Assembly (NCBI GenBank): GCA_963804165.1 | Contig: CAWDPO010000030.1 | Coordinates: forward strand, 64,001-128,000 | Reading direction: 5' to 3' | Length of the DNA: 64,000 nucleotides | Source of the DNA: an uncultured delta proteobacterium | GTDB taxonomy: Bacteria > Desulfobacterota > Binatia > UBA9968 | In this document: positions 1 to 47,497 of the stretch, one piece after another | Layout of the letters: each line of letters begins with the position of its first letter | How positions within the stretch are numbered: the stretch's first letter is position 1 | Notes under the pieces: model-generated | What the model saw: only the letters and a program-made list of their open reading frames with translations | The model's database searches: none | What the model was told of the DNA's origin: nothing | Translations under genes and position numbers: made by a program

Positions 1-494
1 GCCGCCTTGGCGACGCCCATGACGTTGTAATTCGGAATGACTTTTTCCGAGCCCATATAGGTGAGTGTGAGGATCGATCCGTTGCGCCCTTCCATCAACG
101 GCGCCGCCCGCTGCGCCAACGCGACGAGCGAATAAGCGCTGACGTCCATGGCGAGGTGAAAGCCCGCGCGGCTGGTTTGCGCATAGGGATTGGACAAGTC
201 TTCTTTGTTGGCAAAGGCGATGGCGTGAATCAGGATATCGACGCCGTTCCATTCCTGCTTCAGGCTGGCAAAAACTTTTTCGATTTCTTCGTCTTTGGTG
301 ACGTCGCAAGGCAAAATGATCTTCGAGCCGATCCCTTCCGCCAGCGGCCGCACGCGCTTTTCCAAAATTTCTCCGGCGTAAGTGAATGCCAGCTCCGCGC
401 CCTCGGCGTGAAACGCCTCCGAGATCGCCCAGGCGATGCTGCGCTCGTTGGCCACGCCAAAGATCGCCGCTTTTTTCCCCTCCAATAATCCCAT
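1..494 (-). CDS. fabI: Enoyl-ACP reductase, truncated by the window edge
   Basis: Manual translation from ATG at 494: MGLLEGKKAAIFGVANERSIAWAI...SAYSL...LTYMGSEKVIPNYNVMGVAKAA. These are FabI motifs. Confidence 0.93.
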   Translation of the reverse strand, partial: MGLLEGKKAAIFGVANERSIAWAISEAFHAEGAELAFTYAGEILEKRVRPLAEGIGSKIILPCDVTKDEEIEKVFASLKQEWNGVDILIHAIAFANKEDLSNPYAQTSRAGFHLAMDVSAYSLVALAQRAAPLMEGRNGSILTLTYMGSEKVIPNYNVMGVAKA

Positions 495-509
495 AATCTC
501 TCCCATACC

Positions 510-650
510 CAATTTTCGATTTTAGATTTTAGATTAGTCAAAAAGAAACCCAGAAACTTGTTCAGATAGATAGCCGCTCGTGCATTTTGTTCCGTATCGA
601 AAACCTGTCCTGAGCTAACGCCGAAGGATCGGCAATCGAAAATCTAAAAT
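510..650. repeat. Heptamer (AATCGAA/AATCTAA) tandem repeats arranged as an imperfect inverted pair
   Basis: TTTTCGATTTTAGATTTTAGATT at about 512-535 and AATCGAAAATCTAAAAT at about 634-650. Related runs occur at 1634-1662 and 1724-1771. Confidence 0.75.
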
Positions 651-1710
651 TATTTGATGATTCTACTCGCTCGCGCCAACACTTCGGGCGAAATCGTCAG
701 GCCGATCTGCTTCGCCGTCTTGAGATTGATGACGAACTCGAACTTCTTGGGCCGTTCCACAGGTATGTCAGCGGGTTTTGTCCCCTTGAGAATCTGATCC
801 ACGATCTCTGCGGCGCGACGGAACATCTCTAACCGATCCTCCGAGTAAACCATGAGTCCGCCTGCCTCGACATACCGAGTGTTGGGATACATCGCTGGCA
901 GTCGACTGTTTGCGGCTAGCTCTAAAATCCGTTTTTGGTGAGCGGCGAAGAACCCACTGCCTCCGAGCTAGAAGCGCCCCAGCACGCTTTTTGGTCGCGG
1001 CTTGAAAGGCATCCTTTCGATGTCGTCACGCTCTTTCACCTCTAAGGATTGAATCCCTAACCCTAAAGACCGAGCCACAGTCTCTGTCTCTTTCATCGTC
1101 ATAGCCCGCGTCTGGATTGGTCGAACTCCAGAGATACCCGACCTGCGAGAGTTTGGGAATAATTTCCTTGAGCAGCTCAAGCCGTTTTCCGTTTAGTTCG
1201 GTGTTAATAGAGGTCAGCCCTGTGATGTTTCCACCAGGGTCGCGCGAGGCTCGCGATGATGCCACGCCTTTCGGCATCCGCGCCGAATGCCATCACAACG
1301 GGGATCGTCTTGATCACTGTTTTTAGCAACCTCCGCCGCTTCAGTCCCGGTGGTAACGATAACGTCGCAGCTGAGACGGACTAGCTCGGCGGCGAGGTCT
1401 GGAAGACCGATCAACCTTCCCCTCCGAGAACCGGTACTCGATTATGAGGTTCTGCTCCTCGACGTAACCGATCTCGCGTAAACGTTCACGAAATGGCTTC
1501 ACGAAAATTGGCTGTAAGTAGAAGCGTTGCTCGCTCCAGATAACATATCCGCGCGACTTTCTTTCGGCTGCTGCGCGTCGGCCACGGCACCCGCACAGTA
1601 TGAAGAAAACAGCGAAGGCGGCGAGGCCCGCCGATTTTAGATTTTCGATTTTGGATTTTAGATTGCCGGAAATGGAATGCAGCCATGGCGACGAATACCT
1701 TTATCTTCAT
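650..1710 (-). CDS. ABC transporter substrate-binding protein (ABC_sub_bind type), several frameshifts
   Basis: Fragments LAAELVRLSCDVIVTTG, PGGNITGLTS...GKRLELLKE and GTKPADIPVERPKKFEFVINLKTAKQIGLTI are spread over several ORFs. Confidence 0.85.
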
Positions 1711-1774
1711 GCTCTTTCCCCTTAATCGAAAACTTGTGAAAGCCGAAGGATTGGCAATCTAAAATCTAAAATTC

Positions 1775-2382
1775 TTAGCTTCTGCCTCGCTTCACTGCGA
1801 GTCCGCGTTGCCAGAGATATTCTTGCTCGCCGGTTTGTTTGGCAATCCAGCGGAGAGAACGAAAAACAGATCGCTCAACCGGTTGACGTATTTGATCAGC
1901 GTCGGATTGACTTCCTCGCGCGCGATAGCCGGAATATTTCCCTCTCCGCGCGCCGGCACACCGTGCGGCACTGGTGCAGATAGGCGCCGATGCGCCCGCC
2001 GCCCGGCAAGATGAAAGACTTAAGCGGTTCGAGATCTTTCTGACACTGGTCGATCAGCTTCTCGAGCCGATTGATCTCATCGTCGCCCACTCGGTACATG
2101 CCCTCTGTGAAAAATTCCGGCGGCGTGGCCAGCTCGCTGCCGAGATCGAATAGCTCGTCTTGAATTTGGCACAGCACTTCGTCCAAAAACTGATGCGCTT
2201 CGCCAGCGTCGAGACTCTCTTCATTGAAGACCCGCGCCAGTCCGACAATGGAGTTTAATTCATCGATCGTCGCCGTAGGCGTCGATTCGCAGCGAATCTT
2301 TGGGCACTCTCTTGCCGCCGACCAGAGCGGTTTCGCCCCTGTCGCCCGTGCGCGTGTAAACTTTGGTGATGCGAACCGCCAT
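1775..2382 (-). CDS. PduO-type cob(I)alamin adenosyltransferase, frameshifted
   Basis: [20 protein letters not shown]...TIDELNS...[14 protein letters not shown]...FILPGG...RTVCRRAER. Confidence 0.9.
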
Positions 2383-2402
2383 GACTTCACAACCGCGACG
2401 TT

Positions 2403-2538
2403 TAGTAGGACGTTGAAAGACTCTCTCGGAATCCTTCGACACGCTCAGGATGAACGGAGATGGGATTGAAATCGCTGAAAAACTTCCGTGCATGCTGAGC
2501 TTGTCGAAGCATTCTTTGCCTTCTTCAGCACCCTGCTA
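2403..2538. mobile_element. MITE-like element with imperfect TIRs enclosing a REP-like palindrome
   Basis: Ends TAGTAGGACGTTGAAAG and TCTTCAGCACCCTGCTA. The internal CCTTCGACACGCTCAGG...CTGAGCTTGTCGAAG palindrome is like that at 4920-5000. Confidence 0.55.
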
Positions 2539-2582
2539 GAATGCAGGATTTAGGAGCCGGATGCTACTCTTGTTGATCCGGT

Positions 2583-3950
2583 TTATTTCTGCGACCGGCT
2601 ACGCCATAGCAAATAAGCTGGGATGCCCAAGCACAAGATGAAAAGTCCGATCAGCGATTCCTTTGGCTTTTCCGTCACCGAGCCCCAAACGATCCATAGA
2701 TGAATGAGCACGAACAGCACTGGCACGATCGGATAACCCCACACCCGATAGGGACGCTTGAGCTCCGGACGTTTCAAACGCAGAACGATCACCGAGCCAA
2801 CGTGAAAGCCGAGAAAAGCGTGATCGCCACGCTGACATAAGTAAACAAGGTGCCCCAAGTGTTGGTGAGAATCAGCAAACAGCTCCAAAGCGCCTGAAGC
2901 AAGATGGCCTTGGTTGGCGTGCCAAATTTCGGGATGAACGTAGGTGAGGCGCTGAAAAAAGACTCCATCCTTCGCCATCGCGTAGTAAATTCGCGGCCCG
3001 ATCATCGTCACTACGTTGAGCGCGCCGAGAATCGATACGGTAATGATCGCGGTAATCCAAGCCGAGGTCTTGAGGCCGAACAGCGCCGTGGTCGCGACTT
3101 CCGACATGCGCAGCGCGCCCTTCATCTCCGTCACCGGCACCGCATAAATATAAACCGCGTTAATCGCCAGATAGAGCGCGGTCACGATCAGCACGCCGTA
3201 CATCAGCGCGCGCGGCAGATTCTCTTCGGGGTCTTTCACTTCACCGGCAATGTAGATGACCGCATTCCATCCCGAGTAGGCGAAGATCACCGGTATAAAA
3301 GCCGCTCCAAACAGACTGGAGTTGCCGATCTTTTCCCAGTCGAAAAGCGGCTCAAAGTGACTCGTGTTGCCGTTGCCGAAAATCACGCCGAAGACAATGA
3401 TGCCCAATAGCGCGCCGATCTTCAGTATCGTCAAAATATTCTGCGTCAAAGTCCCCTGCCTGACACCCAGGCAGTGAAGTCCCGACAAAAGCAACACCAC
3501 CGCCATGGAAAAGAGTGTGCCCACCGTGGCGCTGATGGGAATCCACGGTAGCGGAATGGAGAAGATCACATCTTGCGAGCCGAGGAACGGAAAGAAAAAC
3601 GACACAAAGCCATTCAATATCACGGCAAGGAAAGCGATCGCGCCGGAGAAGGTGACGAGAAACGAAGACCAACCGGACAAGAAACCCATCAGCTTGCCAT
3701 AGGCTTCGCGGATGTAGATGTAGTCACCGCCGGCGTAGGGCATGCTCGCAGACAATTCAGCGCAAGTGAGAGCACCGGCAAGGGCGAGCAGTCCGCCAAA
3801 AAGCCACACGAGCAATACGCCGCCGGGGGTCGGCAGGGTCTCCGCAATCGCCCCGGTAGAGATGAAAATCCCTGTGCCGATCATATCGCCGGCAATCAAC
3901 ATGACCGCTGAAAACAAGCCGATTTGCCGTTTGAGTTCAGTTTGCGCCAT
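2583..3950 (-). CDS. APC-family amino acid permease (local frameshift pair near the C-terminus)
   Basis: MAQTELKRQIGLFS...IGTGIF...AELSASMPYAGGDYIYIREAYG...FAYSGWN...GEVKDP...RPYRVWGYP. Confidence 0.92.
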   Translation of the reverse strand: MAQTELKRQIGLFSAVMLIAGDMIGTGIFISTGAIAETLPTPGGVLLVWLFGGLLALAGALTCAELSASMPYAGGDYIYIREAYGKLMGFLSGWSSFLVTFSGAIAFLAVILNGFVSFFFPFLGSQDVIFSIPLPWIPISATVGTLFSMAVVLLLSGLHCLGVRQGTLTQNILTILKIGALLGIIVFGVIFGNGNTSHFEPLFDWEKIGNSSLFGAAFIPVIFAYSGWNAVIYIAGEVKDPEENLPRALMYGVLIVTALYLAINAVYIYAVPVTEMKGALRMSEVATTALFGLKTSAWITAIITVSILGALNVVTMIGPRIYYAMAKDGVFFQRLTYVHPEIWHANQGHLASGALELFADSHQHLGHLVYLCQRGDHAFLGFHVGSVIVLRLKRPELKRPYRVWGYPIVPVLFVLIHLWIVWGSVTEKPKESLIGLFILCLGIPAYLLWRSRSQK

Positions 3951-4094
3951 AGCGCCGAACATTACAGGGAAATGTTTAGGCAGGCAACTAATTTGCGCGC
4001 CAGACAGCTTTCCAGAGCAATTGGAACTGGCAAAAAATAATGTAGGTAGCTTTTCGCGAACTGACTGAAAGTAGCCTCTAAGGAGAATCGTCCA

Positions 4095-4769
4095 ATGATA
4101 CTCGTATCCTTTGCTCGTCGCCGTGATTCTTATGCTCCCGCTACTCGTCGCGGCCAGGATGCCGTCAAACGCGATGAACATCAGATGCATGGGCTGCACA
4201 ACGATCCGAAGTCTTACATCGGCGCGCTGGAAGATCCCAAGCGCGACGCCTACCAAAAGCCGCACGAAGTTCTGACGGCGTTGAATCTCAAACCGGGCGA
4301 AGTCATCGCCGACATCGGCGCCGGCTCCGGCTACTTCACGTTCCGTCTTGCGCACCACGTCGGCGCCAAAGGAAAAATCTACGCCGTCGATGTGAGCCCC
4401 GACATGATCCGGCACATCAACCGGCGGCATCCGCGAGACTGAAAACAACGAATGTCGTCTCGATCCTCGCCGATCCCGACGATCCACTGCTGCCGGAGCA
4501 ATCGGTCAACCGCTTTTTCTTCAGCAACTCCTGGCACCACATTGAGAACCAGACGAAATATCTTTCGACTGATGAAAAAAATGCTCAAGCCCAAGGGGGA
4601 AGTGGTCATGATCGACTTTCACAAAAAAGAGATGCAGGTCGGCCCGCCGCTGAAAACGAAAATCGCCAGAGAAGATTTAATCAAGCAAATGGAAACGAAC
4701 GGTTTTCGGCTCACCAAAGAACACACGTTTCTGCCCTACCAGTATTTCCTAGTGTTTGCGCCCAAGTGA
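4095..4769 (+). CDS. Class I SAM-dependent methyltransferase with signal-like N-terminus, frameshifted
   Basis: RDAYQKPHEVL...VIADIGAGSGYFTFRLA...IYAVDV, then LKPKGEVVMIDF...FLPYQYFLVF. Confidence 0.85.
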
Positions 4770-4837
4770 AACGTCGGTAATGACTCATCTTGGTCGACCA
4801 TTTGTGCAGAGGCTTTTCAGCAAAAGTCGCAGTAAAA

Positions 4838-4893
4838 CAGATTCTTCGCTGTGCTCAGAATGACGTTCGAGGGGGAGTTGTCATCCTGAACGA
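4838..4893. repeat. REP-like palindromic repeat (GTCATCCTGA.../...TCAGAATGAC family), interrupted
   Basis: The same family continues at 6343-6390 and occurs intact at about 36047-36128. Confidence 0.7.
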
Positions 4894-5024
4894 CAGACTG
4901 TGTGAAAACTCTATCGGAGCCCTTCGACTAGGCTCAGGGCGAACGGATAAGTACTTTATTTCTAATAAACGCCACCGTTCGTGGTGAGCGAGTCGAACCA
5001 TGAACTGTGTTTTCACACAGTCTG
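4894..5024. mobile_element. MITE sharing TIRs with the IS1182 at 37674-39327
   Basis: CAGACTGTGTGAAAAC at 4894 and GTTTTCACACAGTCTG ending at 5024. It is preceded by ACGA, as the IS is. Confidence 0.85.
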
Positions 5025-5041
5025 GGCTCATCTATGAAAGC

Positions 5042-5236
5042 TTTGTCAAGGTATCTGTTAGTCACATATTGTTTTTTCTTCTCATGGTTTCGAATACACC
5101 AGTACTTATCGTCCGTGGCAAAGCGTACCGGATGTTATAGGACTCATCTATTCGCGGTCTAAAGCGGCAGAGAAAAATGCCACAGGGCTGTCGCAATCAG
5201 AATTCGGGTCGCAGTGGACAGATGAGCCGCGCGCGC
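5042..5236 (-). ncRNA. Candidate bridge/seek RNA region of the IS1111 element
   Basis: Expected location for IS1111-type elements. It contains three 9-nt matches to the element's junctions (see findings). Confidence 0.55.
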
Positions 5237-6274
5237 TTAGCCCTGCGTGGACGACATCGGTTCGCGATAGCTTTCTCCTTTTTTCAACATGAAGAAACTA
5301 GCCTCGGCGAAGTGTCGAGCCACGGCCACAATCGCTTTGAGGTGCCCTCGTCTGGCTTTGACATTTTCATACAGCCGGGCAACGTGTCGGTACTGGCAGC
5401 GCTCGCGGTTGAGCACCGCGCTATTGGAGGCTTCGGTAAAGGCCCACTTCAGATAAAGATTCACATCCTTTCTCACCCGCGCGTAGCGCACCTTGACGAC
5501 ACTGGAGTTCTGCCAAGGTATCAGCTCGGCGTAACTCGCCAGCTGCTGGCTCGCCCAGAGCGCTAGATCGTAAAGATCTCAGCGCAGATCACCACCGCGA
5601 AAATCTCACCCACCCTGGCCCCTCTGCAAATAAGTCGTCTCGGCACAGGGAGCAAAGGCTTGGCGCATTTGGCCTTCAATGGTCTTGAGATTGGCCTGCA
5701 CATGGTCGAGCTCGTCGAGCATCAATCGCAGCGCTTGTTGGGTGTGCGGTGGCAGCTTGGAGCAAAGCTCTTCGATGATCTGTCGGCCCCGCTTGCCAAA
5801 GGCGTCGCTGACGCCGTCGACCTTGAGCCCGTACTTCTCCAGAGTGGCGTGAATACGGTTCTTGAACTGGGTTCTCTGCTTGCTGAGCACCATGCGGGTG
5901 CGCGGCAGCTCGCGGCCATCACGAACCGCAGACGGCGCAATCCACACCGTCGGCAGGGTTCCGACTCTCTGCAAACGATTCATTCCTTTCGCATCGAGCT
6001 TGTCGCTCTTGTTCACGCTGCCGATCATCAGCTTGGCCAGTCGTGCGTTGACCAGTTGCGGCGATCCTTTCCCCGCCTCGATCTCATCGACTACCCAGTA
6101 CCAGTTGCCCACGGTCTCAACCGCCACCGGGGTTCCCGGAATCCACTTGTTGGTGAAGTTCTTAATCGTTCCTCGACTATGCGCCAGTTTACACTCAAAG
6201 AACTTCTGGCCTTGGTCATTTTCTACCCGCGCCCAGGTGTAATGCTTATGAACATCCAATGCGACGTATTCCAT
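5237..6274 (-). pseudogene. IS110-family recombinase/transposase, disrupted around 5500-5610
   Basis: DEDD domain (ALDVHKHY...VETVGNW...KSDKLDA) and a C-terminal part (QLASYA...NSS...YLKWAF...AIVAVAR), separated by frameshifts and a stop. Confidence 0.85.
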
Positions 6275-6424
6275 TTGCGATTTCCTCCTCCAGCCGTCAG
6301 TCTATCTACCGACGCTGAGGATTTCATCGCTTTCATATTAATCAGAATGACGCTCGACGGAGTTGTCATCCTGAACGAAGTGAAGGATCTGCTTTCAATT
6401 TCAAATTGAGTGGCTATCGAATCG

Positions 6425-7514
6425 TCACAAATTGTAGAAGTTCATGGCGTTGCCGCTCAGGATGGCGTCCTTGTCGTGGTCGGACAAGTCCGGATGGTCG
6501 ATCAGCTCATTTAGCTCATGCACGGCAGGTCTCGCTGTTAACCTCGTGGGGAAAATCCGAAGAGTACATGAACGGCTCGGCGCCGACCATTTTAACGGCG
6601 GTGGCAAGAAGCGGTTCCCCGCCCTCGCAGCCGACGAAAATTCGCCGCGCCTTAACATGCCGGACGATGTAGTCGCTGACTTTCTCGCCTGGCTGAAGTT
6701 TTAGATAGCTGCCCCTCAGATCGCGCATCACGTGTGACTGGTAGGAGCTGTCGAACCGTTCCAGGCAGAACAAGAACCACGCGACGCCGCCTTCGAGAAA
6801 ACCGAACTTAACCTTCGGATATCTTTCCAGCACGCCGCTAAAAACAATCGACGCCAGCGAAATCATCTGACCGAGCGGATGCCCGATCGCATGCACGGCC
6901 GCGTATGGATCGAGCCCGTCCATACCCATGCCACCGTGCACTCCCCCGTGGATGGCGACACAACAACCCAAATCATTCGCCGCCTCGTAAATGGGAAAGT
7001 AAGTCGGTGTGCCGAGCGGAGGCGCGTGCAAACTGTTCGACGGGATCACCGCGCCGCACATGCCGAGCTCAGTTACTGCCCGGCGCAATTCTTGCGCAGC
7101 GGCTTGCGGATTCAAAATAGGCTGCGGCAACAATGCCAACCCGCGAAAGCGCGGGCTGTATCGGAAATAAGTTTCGCAAAGCCAGTCGTTATATGCGCGC
7201 GCGGCATCGATGGCCCAATCCGGATTGACGATGTTCGACGAACCCACGCCGGACGTTGGGTAAAGCACCGTGCTTTCGAGACCCACCTCGTCCAAAAACG
7301 TCAGCCACTCCTTCGGCCCCACGTGTCGATTAAAAGCGCCCGCGGGCATGTCGACAAGATGAGCCGCGTGCAAGTGATCGAAGGGGGGAAACGGATTGAA
7401 AGGCTGCAAGCGCGCCTTTTCACGATACGCGTCTGGCATATGCGCGATGATCGCCGGCGCATCCTCGGCGACGTGGCCGTCGGCGTCGATGATTCTTCGA
7501 TTTTCTAGAGGCAT
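6425..7514 (-). CDS. Amidohydrolase family protein (Amidohydro_2), C-terminal frameshift
   Basis: IIDADGHV...ARAYNDWL...AIHGG...FLEGGVAW...SSDFPHE...ILSGNAMNFY. Confidence 0.9.
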
Positions 7515-36046: not shown

Positions 36047-36128
36047 GTCATTTTGAGGAGCTTTGCGACGAAGAATCTGCTTCGAGCAATGAACAAAGCA
36101 GATCCTTCGCCCCTGGCTCAGGATGACA
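36047..36128. repeat. Intact REP-like palindrome of the family targeted by the IS1111
   Basis: TGTCATTTTGAG...GAAGAATCTGC / GCAGATCCTTCG...GGCTCAGGATGACA. Confidence 0.7.
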
Positions 36129-47386: not shown

Positions 47387-47497
47387 TGGGGGTGACCAGC
47401 TTTTACCCTCTTCATTCGATTATGGACAACTATATGAAATATCTAACAAGGCGAACGGAGGGATAGACAAAAATTTTAGCTATGTCATTCTGATGGC

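Follow-up and report, generated by a model that had tools for sequence, protein, structure and literature searches.

Anatomy of the element and its insertion site

The window analysed here is a 64,000-nucleotide stretch of contig CAWDPO010000030.1 (assembly GCA_963804165.1) from an uncultured delta proteobacterium, and its positions 5029-6344 almost certainly hold a dead insertion sequence (IS) of the IS1111 group of the IS110 family, situated at the CA core of a repetitive extragenic palindrome (REP). The insertion consists of a CA core copy at either end and, between them, an element body that carries a transposase pseudogene on the minus strand followed by a long non-coding region with the anatomy of a guide RNA (Table 1); intact copies of the same type elsewhere in the genome are 3 nt longer. 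The flanks rejoin to ..GGGCT-CA-GAATGAC.., which is one REP arm, and sequence matches confirmed two claims of the initial annotation of this DNA: that the element lies at a CA core inside a REP, and that the same repeat family recurs at 4838-4893 and 36047-36128. The family is a real one, since each CTCAGRATGAC-type site has an inverted partner (11 matches in the window against 1.69 expected), the sites being 4854-4864/4880-4890, the occupied 6341-6351/6365-6375 and 36047-36057/36117-36127. One further match resembling the 9-mers discussed below, at 47484-47494, was set aside as a chance site with neither REP nor element around it.

IS1111 elements are described as having a downstream non-coding region, subterminal inverted repeats, transposases of 330-350 aa, and a top-strand target match lying 5' of the bottom-strand match (PMC11187229), and their subterminal repeats as measuring 7-17 bp (PMC11208160). 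The repeats of the window copy are 9 bp long, with extensions of 2 nt and 5 nt between repeats and core, and relatives keep them as ..TGAAAG / CTTTCA... About 206 nt separate the transposase stop codon (5237-5239) from the element end, as against about 68 nt upstream of the start codon. All testable defining features of the IS1111 group and of seek/bridge RNAs were found, with the exception of a fourth guide. If the element circularised, with a predicted junction of ..TTAAT-CA-TCTATG.., TTGACA and TAATAT from its two ends would come to lie in the classic arrangement of a junction promoter, with a spacer of 17 nt made up of 13 nt from one end, the core dinucleotide and 2 nt from the other; the TTGACA motif is retained among relatives (CTTGACAAAGCTTTCATAGATG). 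No circle junction was seen in public contigs of the four runs compared with the stretch.

The transposase copy had been described as disrupted, and it is: relative to the intact 346-aa copies it carries frameshifts at 5547 and 5616, one stop and many substitutions, lesions that strike the C-terminal Tnp domain including its GLxPxxxxSG serine motif and leave an N-terminal open reading frame of 222 aa (5606-6274, minus strand) that matches PF01548 only, with the remainder of the gene out of frame. The intact proteins of both types of copy defined below (346 aa each) carry PF01548 (E 4.9e-13) and PF02371 (E 2e-21), that is, the N-terminal DEDD/RuvC-like and C-terminal Tnp domains of the IS110 family, and the intact protein scores 234.9 bits against the NCBIfam model NF033542, 'IS110 family RNA-guided transposase' (cut-off 140). 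Similarity to the IS621 transposase (8wt6; E 5.8e-12) covers the C-terminal domain only, where the SG serine aligns with the ESG of IS621, and similarity to the ISCro4 transposase structure is distant (E 7.7e-11). Candidate DEDD acidic residues D7, E53, D91 and D94, which were chosen by eye on D..E..DxxD spacing and not by alignment to IS621, are invariant in an alignment of nine relatives. Intact copies of both types read YAGLVPRENSSGGK at the catalytic serine motif, in agreement with the pattern G..P....S/TG; in the nine-sequence alignment the only invariant residues of this stretch are Y249, G251, R255, G260 and K262, the serine and P254 falling outside that list. Because its recombinase and three hairpins of its RNA are broken, the window copy appears unable to act alone; because its ends and flanks are intact, intact copies might mobilise it in trans.

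Sister copies and empty sites in the same genome

The assembly of the organism (7.5 Mb, 46 contigs) was searched with the element and holds 12 matches to it. Six full-length copies form type A, namely the window copy and five others that are 96-97% identical to it (an intact one occupies C17:220414-221733), and four copies about 80% identical form type B. Because four intact type A copies at different loci differ by only 0-1 nt among themselves, type A seems to have moved recently, and to have done so without an evident fourth guide.

Other insertions had been expected in REPs, and there they are: the core is followed by GAATGAC in 6/6 full-length type A copies and by GCATGAC in 4/4 type B copies, with a left flank of ..GATTCTTCGC..GCGGCT in the former and ..GATGCTTCGC..TTGCT in the latter. 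The whole genome counts 70 CTCAGAATGAC and 20 CTCAGCATGAC sites, almost all of them in the context AGAT(T/G)CTTCGC-N-CTCAG(A/C)ATGACA. CA flanks both sides of 10 copies. Two empty sites with a single CA occur on contig C25, whose positions 1-6926 are 98.5% identical to C20:82150-89976 and lack both insertions found there: ..GCATTGCT-CA-GCATGACA.., occupied on C20 by a type B copy, and ..CTGCGGCT-CA-GAATGACA.., occupied on C20 by a type A copy. Insertion is therefore precise at a single CA, which is afterwards present on both sides, in keeping with the site-specific insertion of the IS1111 group, with a short core at both junctions and no other duplication.

The two 98.5% identical stretches within one assembly may reflect either a mixture of strains binned together or a duplication of recent date. 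At C22:28900-29690 a type A copy with an internal deletion, in which element positions 296-388 are joined to 615-1316, has the REP flank AAATGAC instead of GAATGAC. The empty site of the window copy itself was not found in its own genome, nor in 30 relatives, where identity of the flanking gene does not exceed 85% and the intergenic sequence cannot be aligned. A weak joint of 5024 to 6375 in one run (depth 2, side 23), perhaps an unoccupied diverged locus, was too weak to use.

Guide letters follow the target

In the non-coding region the initial annotation had picked out three 9-mers as copies of the element's own junctions. The sequence AATCAGAAT at 5195-5203 does equal the right junction at 6340-6348 (5 matches in the window against 0.57 expected), and CTCATCTAT does occur both at 5027-5035 and at 5143-5151 (2 against 0.24; 1 of 100 shuffles reached 2). 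For GGCTCATCT, the occurrences at 5025-5033 on the plus strand and 5220-5228 on the minus strand stand (3 against 0.43), whereas the reading of the second as a copy of the left junction does not: the 'AG' of AGATGAGCC (5220-5221) is private to the decayed window copy, and CCATGAGC or TCATGAGC stands there in each of the four intact, nearly identical type A copies and in every one of the four type B copies. It follows that the guide proper is ..GAGCCGCG, whose reverse complement is CGCGGCTCA. Single 9-mer counts of this order are only mildly unusual in 64 kb; they are suggestive, not decisive alone, and the weight comes from the relatives.

The two types within the genome already differ where guides should. 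At guide 2 the RNA would read AAUUCUGAU in type A and AAUGCUGAU in type B, AATCAGAAT of the window being replaced by AATCAGCAT in 4/4 type B copies, and guide 1 differs too (CATGAGCCGCGC in type A, CATGAGCGAAAC in type B), in step with the left flank, while the hairpin between the two target guides compensates (GGGTC/GACCC in type A, GAGCC/GGCTC in type B). Were these letters guides, precisely this change would be predicted.

Protein scans returned 21 loci on genome contigs (25-92% identity), from metagenome-assembled genomes labelled Binatia, Nitrospirota, Chloroflexota, Planctomycetota and others, together with 80 further loci on metagenome contigs. Of 103 elements submitted to a pattern-based parser, 82 showed a recognisable RNA scaffold; the other 21, mostly truncated or decayed, were dropped. 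Read in transposase orientation, the scaffold runs ..AAGCGCG - guide 1 - CAUG - hairpin - guide 2 - UGAUUGCGA - helix - segment (i) - hairpin GCCGC..GGCG - AA-NNNN-UG-NN - hairpin UCCGA..CGG. Guides matched REP targets of the kinds GTCATTC, GTCATGC or GTCATCC-TG-AGC.., as well as other targets, among them GCGAACC-TG-GATGCCG, GTGCCTC-TG-AGCAGGC, GACCTT-TG-GGTTATG and TCCCGT-TG-GAGCCACC (the core reads TG in this orientation). A close relative, L018, whose protein is 92% identical to that of type A, has the target GTGCCTC-TG-AGCAGGC with matching guides. Quantitatively, the mean agreement between guide 1 and its own right flank is 4.75 of 7 positions, compared with 2.75 after permutation of the targets (61 dereplicated elements), and that between guide 2 and its own left flank is 4.13 of 5, compared with 1.77 (30 dereplicated elements); for both guides 0 of 5,000 permutations reached the observed match, a figure that is not a probability, since the permutations ignore relatedness. 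The effect is large and spread over many target classes, and homologues with other targets do not keep the 9-mers, an outcome that would have spoken against the initial annotation. Two target guides for opposite strands, held in one loop and changing with the target, are the trait of seek/bridge RNAs, and the assignment of 5195-5228 as a target-binding loop is upheld in types A and B and in the relatives alike.

Several distant relatives (L080, L091, L108, L077, L078, L093, L097, L101 and L102) lie in tRNA-gene-like sequences, with guides that match these sites. In one class the flanks read GGTTCGAATCCCGT-TG-GAGCCACCA, resembling a T arm and 3' end with CCA; in another they read GACCTT-TG-GGTTATGAGCC, the other strand of which is like an anticodon arm with CAU.

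A donor guide that tracks the element's own end

In the window copy, guide 1 has the sense of the plus-strand left flank plus the CA core and would pair with the opposite strand, and guide 2 carries a 3' extension, AU(U), complementary to the last element letters before the core. The donor guide is complementary to the element end, the core and 2 nt of the left target flank. Its placement at 5143-5151 in the initial annotation is borne out by the relatives, in which the tetranucleotide preceding UG is identical to the final 4 nt of the element end in 70 of 72 cases, the other two showing single mismatches, and fall into the classes TAGA (43), GATA (21), GAGA (5) and TACA (1). Beyond the core, the next letter of the donor guide agrees with the first letter of the target flank in 63 of 71 elements. 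The other element end begins with A, and of the 28 elements in which the target flank begins with some other letter, 20 carry the letter of the target at this place and 8 carry A. The letters of guide 2 past the core, likewise the first letters of the other element end, are invariant and so fall outside the covariation test.

In IS621, handshake guides lie next to the right target guide (RTG) and the right donor guide (RDG) and pair with partner DNA after top-strand exchange (PMC11208158). By analogy, guide 1 would correspond to the left target guide (LTG), guide 2 to the RTG plus a handshake and the donor guide to the RDG plus a handshake, an order (LTG-like 5', RTG-like 3', RDG-like in a second module; window plus orientation) that would be the one found in IS621. 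The guides resemble junctions because the two 3'-side guides extend past the core into partner DNA in this handshake style.

That the 9-mer matches might be by-products of REPs, the non-coding region having captured a REP or a REP-like palindrome with no guiding role, was considered in view of the abundance of REPs in this genome (the 70 and 20 sites of two variants), of the target itself being an imperfect palindrome, and of single 9-mers being only mildly rarer than chance. We regard it as extremely unlikely: relatives in non-REP sites (GTGCCTC-TG-AGCAGGC, GCGAACC-TG-GATGCCG and the tRNA-like ones) carry guides for those sites, the scaffold is conserved while guide letters vary, so that relatives with different flanks do not keep identical loop letters, and the donor guide tracks the element's own end and not REP sequence.

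On the guide-RNA reading, a fourth guide should be similar to the left donor guide (LDG) of IS621 and is expected in segment (i). In clades whose element end reads ATG.. or ATATTA, segment (i) ends ..CCAUCAU or similar and makes 5-7 of 8 Watson-Crick pairs with core plus end, the single ATTGCA element (L083) making 4 of 8. In the window's clade, with element ends ATTAAT, ATTATT, ATTACT and ATAATT, the same register gives 0-3 of 8 (37 elements), in agreement with the initial annotation, which had not found a fourth guide either. Other placements (the segment after hp2, bulged registers) reached at best 4-6 of 8 with AU-rich, inconsistent pairing, and no guide is claimed there. For ISEc11, a short seekRNA with the target loop only is reported to have sufficed for movement (PMC11187229), so that a relaxed need for RNA on the donor side would come as no surprise in IS1111 elements; the window's clade may work with three RNA guides and leave the fourth donor half to contacts between protein and inverted repeat.

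Fold of the non-coding region

RNAalifold, run on an alignment of 73 distinct sequences, returned an 8-bp outer helix P1, a 4-bp helix P2, an apical hairpin P3 and a hairpin hp1, with 98.6% of cells paired and 15 of 23 pairs changed on both sides; 0 of 500 shuffles reached the observed values, and slid controls were 32-44% paired. Folding of the 9-mers into stems, which would have told against the initial annotation, is not what is seen: the two target guides occupy the internal loop that separates P2 from P3, enclosed by the two helices and the apical hairpin, with a conserved scaffold around variable guide letters. In single-sequence folds the second module resembles a multiloop with two hairpins, and a helix of GUGGCA with UGCCAC (P4), of which type B keeps only 4 pairs, would tentatively close it. 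IS1111 bridge RNAs are described as lying in the right end of the element, often with donor-binding letters in a multiloop (PMC11208160).

Table 1 Features of the element and its surroundings in the window (window coordinates)
Feature	Position	Strand	Remarks
Left CA core copy	5029..5030	.	TG in transposase orientation; boundary of REP flank ..GGGCT and element end
Element body, IS1111-type, type A, decayed	5031..6342	-	12 matches in own genome
Right CA core copy	6343..6344	.	followed by REP half GAATGAC...GTCATCCTGAAC
Subterminal inverted repeat TATGAAAGC	5033..5041	+	end downstream of transposase; read from sequence
Subterminal inverted repeat partner GCTTTCATA	6329..6337	+	end upstream of transposase; read from sequence
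TTGACA, -35 half of predicted circle-junction promoter	5044..5049	-	read from sequence
TAATAT, -10 half of predicted junction promoter	6335..6340	-	read from sequence
Transposase pseudogene	5237..6274	-	N-terminal DEDD domain largely intact; C-terminal Tnp domain damaged
Target-binding module of predicted bridge/seek RNA	5183..5245	-	closed by helices P1 and P2; fold and covariation
Helix P1	5239-5245 with 5183-5189	-	compensatory change in all 8 pairs
Helix P2	5232-5235 with 5192-5195	-	closes target-binding module
Guide 1, RNA CGCGGCUCAU	5222..5231	-	LTG-like, element read in + orientation
Apical hairpin P3 of target loop	5206..5221	-	damaged here: GGGUC to CUGUC via changes at 5220-5221
Guide 2, RNA GAAUUCUGAU(U)	5196..5205	-	complementary to + strand CA-GAAT, right flank; RTG-like plus handshake-like
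Segment (i), RNA UUUUUCUCU	5169..5177	-	fourth-guide position of distant relatives; here weakly complementary to other donor half
Hairpin hp1, GCCGC...GGCG in intact copies	5153..5168	-	broken here by change at 5156
Donor guide, RNA AAUAGAUGAG	5143..5152	-	complementary to + strand CT-CA-TCTATT; RDG-like plus handshake-like
Hairpin hp2, UCCGAUAACAUCGGG in intact copies	5128..5142	-	broken here by changes at 5130 and 5139
Tentative helix, 3' strand UGCCAC	5115..5120	-	with GUGGCA 5178-5183; single-sequence folds
Private-substitution tract, 492 bp	5130..5621	+	40 of 45 private substitutions
REP half downstream of insertion, GAATGAC...GTCATCCTGAA	6345..6375	+	sequence
Unoccupied REP, same family	4838..4893	+	sequence
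Unoccupied REP pair, same family	36047..36128	+	sequence

The helices also bear on whether the conserved non-coding region acts as DNA, either through binding sites for the recombinase or as a junction-like DNA-DNA pairing site that positions the ends, a reading to which the subterminal inverted repeats of IS1111 elements, which probably bind protein, lend something, as do the lack of any run recorded as RNA among the 23 listed and the absence of a fourth guide in the window's clade. The helices, however, stay paired through compensatory changes that include G-U pairs (in 23 sequences at one P1 pair, and invariantly at P2 and hp1), which are meaningful only at the level of RNA, and related IS1111 recombinases are reported to co-purify with RNA of the non-coding region, which is essential for their movement (PMC11187229). 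We consider an action as DNA very unlikely. To a role as a regulatory 3' untranslated region or small RNA of the transposase gene, one that would act on stability or translation instead of targeting, we give scarcely any probability at all: the 5' strand of P1 does overlap the final transposase codons and the stop codon, and IS110-family elements such as ISPpu9 are described as also carrying regulatory small RNAs (PMC12288879), but regulation does not predict loop letters that follow the flanking target and the element end.

Several points nevertheless weigh against a guide RNA at this locus, in addition to the relatedness that the permutations ignore and the fourth guide that is not evident in the window's clade. 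The type A versus type B contrast is one evolutionary event and not ten. Guide 1 tolerates mismatches, as its own-target mean indicates (3 matches or fewer in 8 of 70 elements), and its pairing rules are therefore loose. The closing helix P4 of the donor module comes from single-sequence folds only. No Rfam family matches the non-coding region: at an E limit of 10, positions 4500-6800 returned no more than 4 weak, chance-level matches, each well short of its gathering score and none belonging to a bridge RNA. Finally, the 23 public runs containing the stretch include none on record as RNA.

Proposed mechanism and comparison with known systems

We propose, with high confidence, the following mechanism, in which expression of the RNA, its complex with the protein, the circle and the activity of the junction promoter are inferred from the family. 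The intact sister copies encode a 346-aa DEDD/serine recombinase and, directly 3' of its gene and overlapping the stop codon, a predicted bridge/seek RNA of roughly 130 nt. One module of this RNA, an internal loop bounded by P1/P2 and P3, would pair by its two sides with opposite strands of the REP around CA, and a second would provide the guide for the element end adjoining the RNA gene, the two 3'-side guides reaching 2-3 nt past the core into the recombination partner in a handshake-type pairing. The complex of recombinase and RNA would then excise the element as a circle with a TTGACA-17-TAATAT junction promoter and insert it at REPs matching the guides. That a guide RNA aims such an element is already known for the family; the element is new and the mechanism is unchanged.

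The closest likeness is to ISEc11, ISPa11, ISKpn4 and ISPst6, which are described as having a DEDD transposase of about 340 aa, subterminal inverted repeats, a long downstream non-coding region, two short target matches with the top-strand match 5', and site- and orientation-specific insertion (PMC11187229). The natural retargeting of close relatives reported there for ISEc11 and ISXne4 is seen here between types A and B and also in L018. The element described here is a different one with a different target, the REP of a soil bacterium, and here the donor guide and handshake-type extensions are additionally supported by covariation.

With the IS621 bridge RNA (PMC11208160, PMC11208158) it shares a two-module RNA, recognition of both strands around a 2-nt core, handshakes by the 3'-side guides and a REP target. 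It differs in the placement of the RNA gene, which follows the recombinase gene and is transcribed in the direction of the element end, in the long (9 bp) inverted repeats and a core of CA instead of CT, and in a donor module that resembles a two-hairpin multiloop and in which, in the window's clade, an LDG equivalent is not evident. ISPpu9 and ISPpu10 of Pseudomonas putida likewise belong to this superfamily and occur in multiple copies at a fixed dinucleotide of host REPs, whereas they are described as members of the IS110 group with an upstream bridge RNA and without long subterminal repeats, ISPpu9 having in addition a strong promoter of its own and extra small RNAs, unlike the element here (PMC12288879).

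The two sister elements make up a well-resolved natural retargeting series in which single guide-letter changes accompany two REP variants in one genome, and more than 30 further target classes among relatives extend it. The locus also brings covariation support for a donor guide and for handshake-type extensions in IS1111-type RNAs, where the published experiments in the sources cited concentrate on the target loop, and points to a clade in which one donor guide appears dispensable. A bridge/seek RNA was recognisable from junction matches alone, in a call that survives testing.

A strand-biased mutation tract in the window copy

Compared with intact type A, the window copy shows 45 substitutions and 3 deleted letters, and most of the substitutions are gathered in the private tract listed in Table 1. 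Within it, 30 of 40 fall at a plus-strand C (14 C>G, 12 C>A, 4 C>T), several at CC doublets; with C making up 35% of the tract, the binomial P for 30/40 is 2.4e-7, and the pattern is rich in transversions. The changes in the coding part comprise 27 that are non-synonymous, 10 that are synonymous and 1 stop, and in the serine motif, which lies in the tract, the invariant G251, R255 and G260 are struck (G251E, R255W, G260V). In the RNA, the tract changes break P3, hp1 and hp2 and create the AG that extends the second 9-mer.

Recombination with a divergent copy was rejected as the source, as the variants are not shared with type B (at non-coding positions aligned for both types), and the mostly non-synonymous character of the changes counts against it as well. 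Ordinary decay is also an unlikely source, given that in the decayed type B copy on C20 the changes are transitions and indels without strand bias. Public contigs from four soil or metagenome runs carry the intact type A letter wherever a listed private position is covered (X3 and X7 span only some of these positions); intact type A is thus widespread, and the tract is neither confirmed nor refuted by them. The tract may be a real strand-coordinated mutation cluster or an artefact of assembly. We think it unlikely that it is a real hypermutation footprint, left when one strand of the element was transiently single-stranded and suffered lesions, or when a directed process disabled insertion sequences, with error-prone bypass to follow; if true, clustered strand-coordinated mutagenesis would have a counterpart in bacteria, with a mobile element as its substrate.

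Other repeats and transposases

Between the two REPs to the left of the element, window positions 4894-5024 hold a repeat of a second kind whose ends are a 15-bp inverted repeat (AGACTGTGTGAAAAC at 4894-4908, its complement at 5010-5024), and the element is therefore situated in a cluster of different short repeats. Contigs C6, C12, C15, C18, C26, C28 and C34 of the same genome carry distant IS110-family transposase genes with 25-40% identity to type A.

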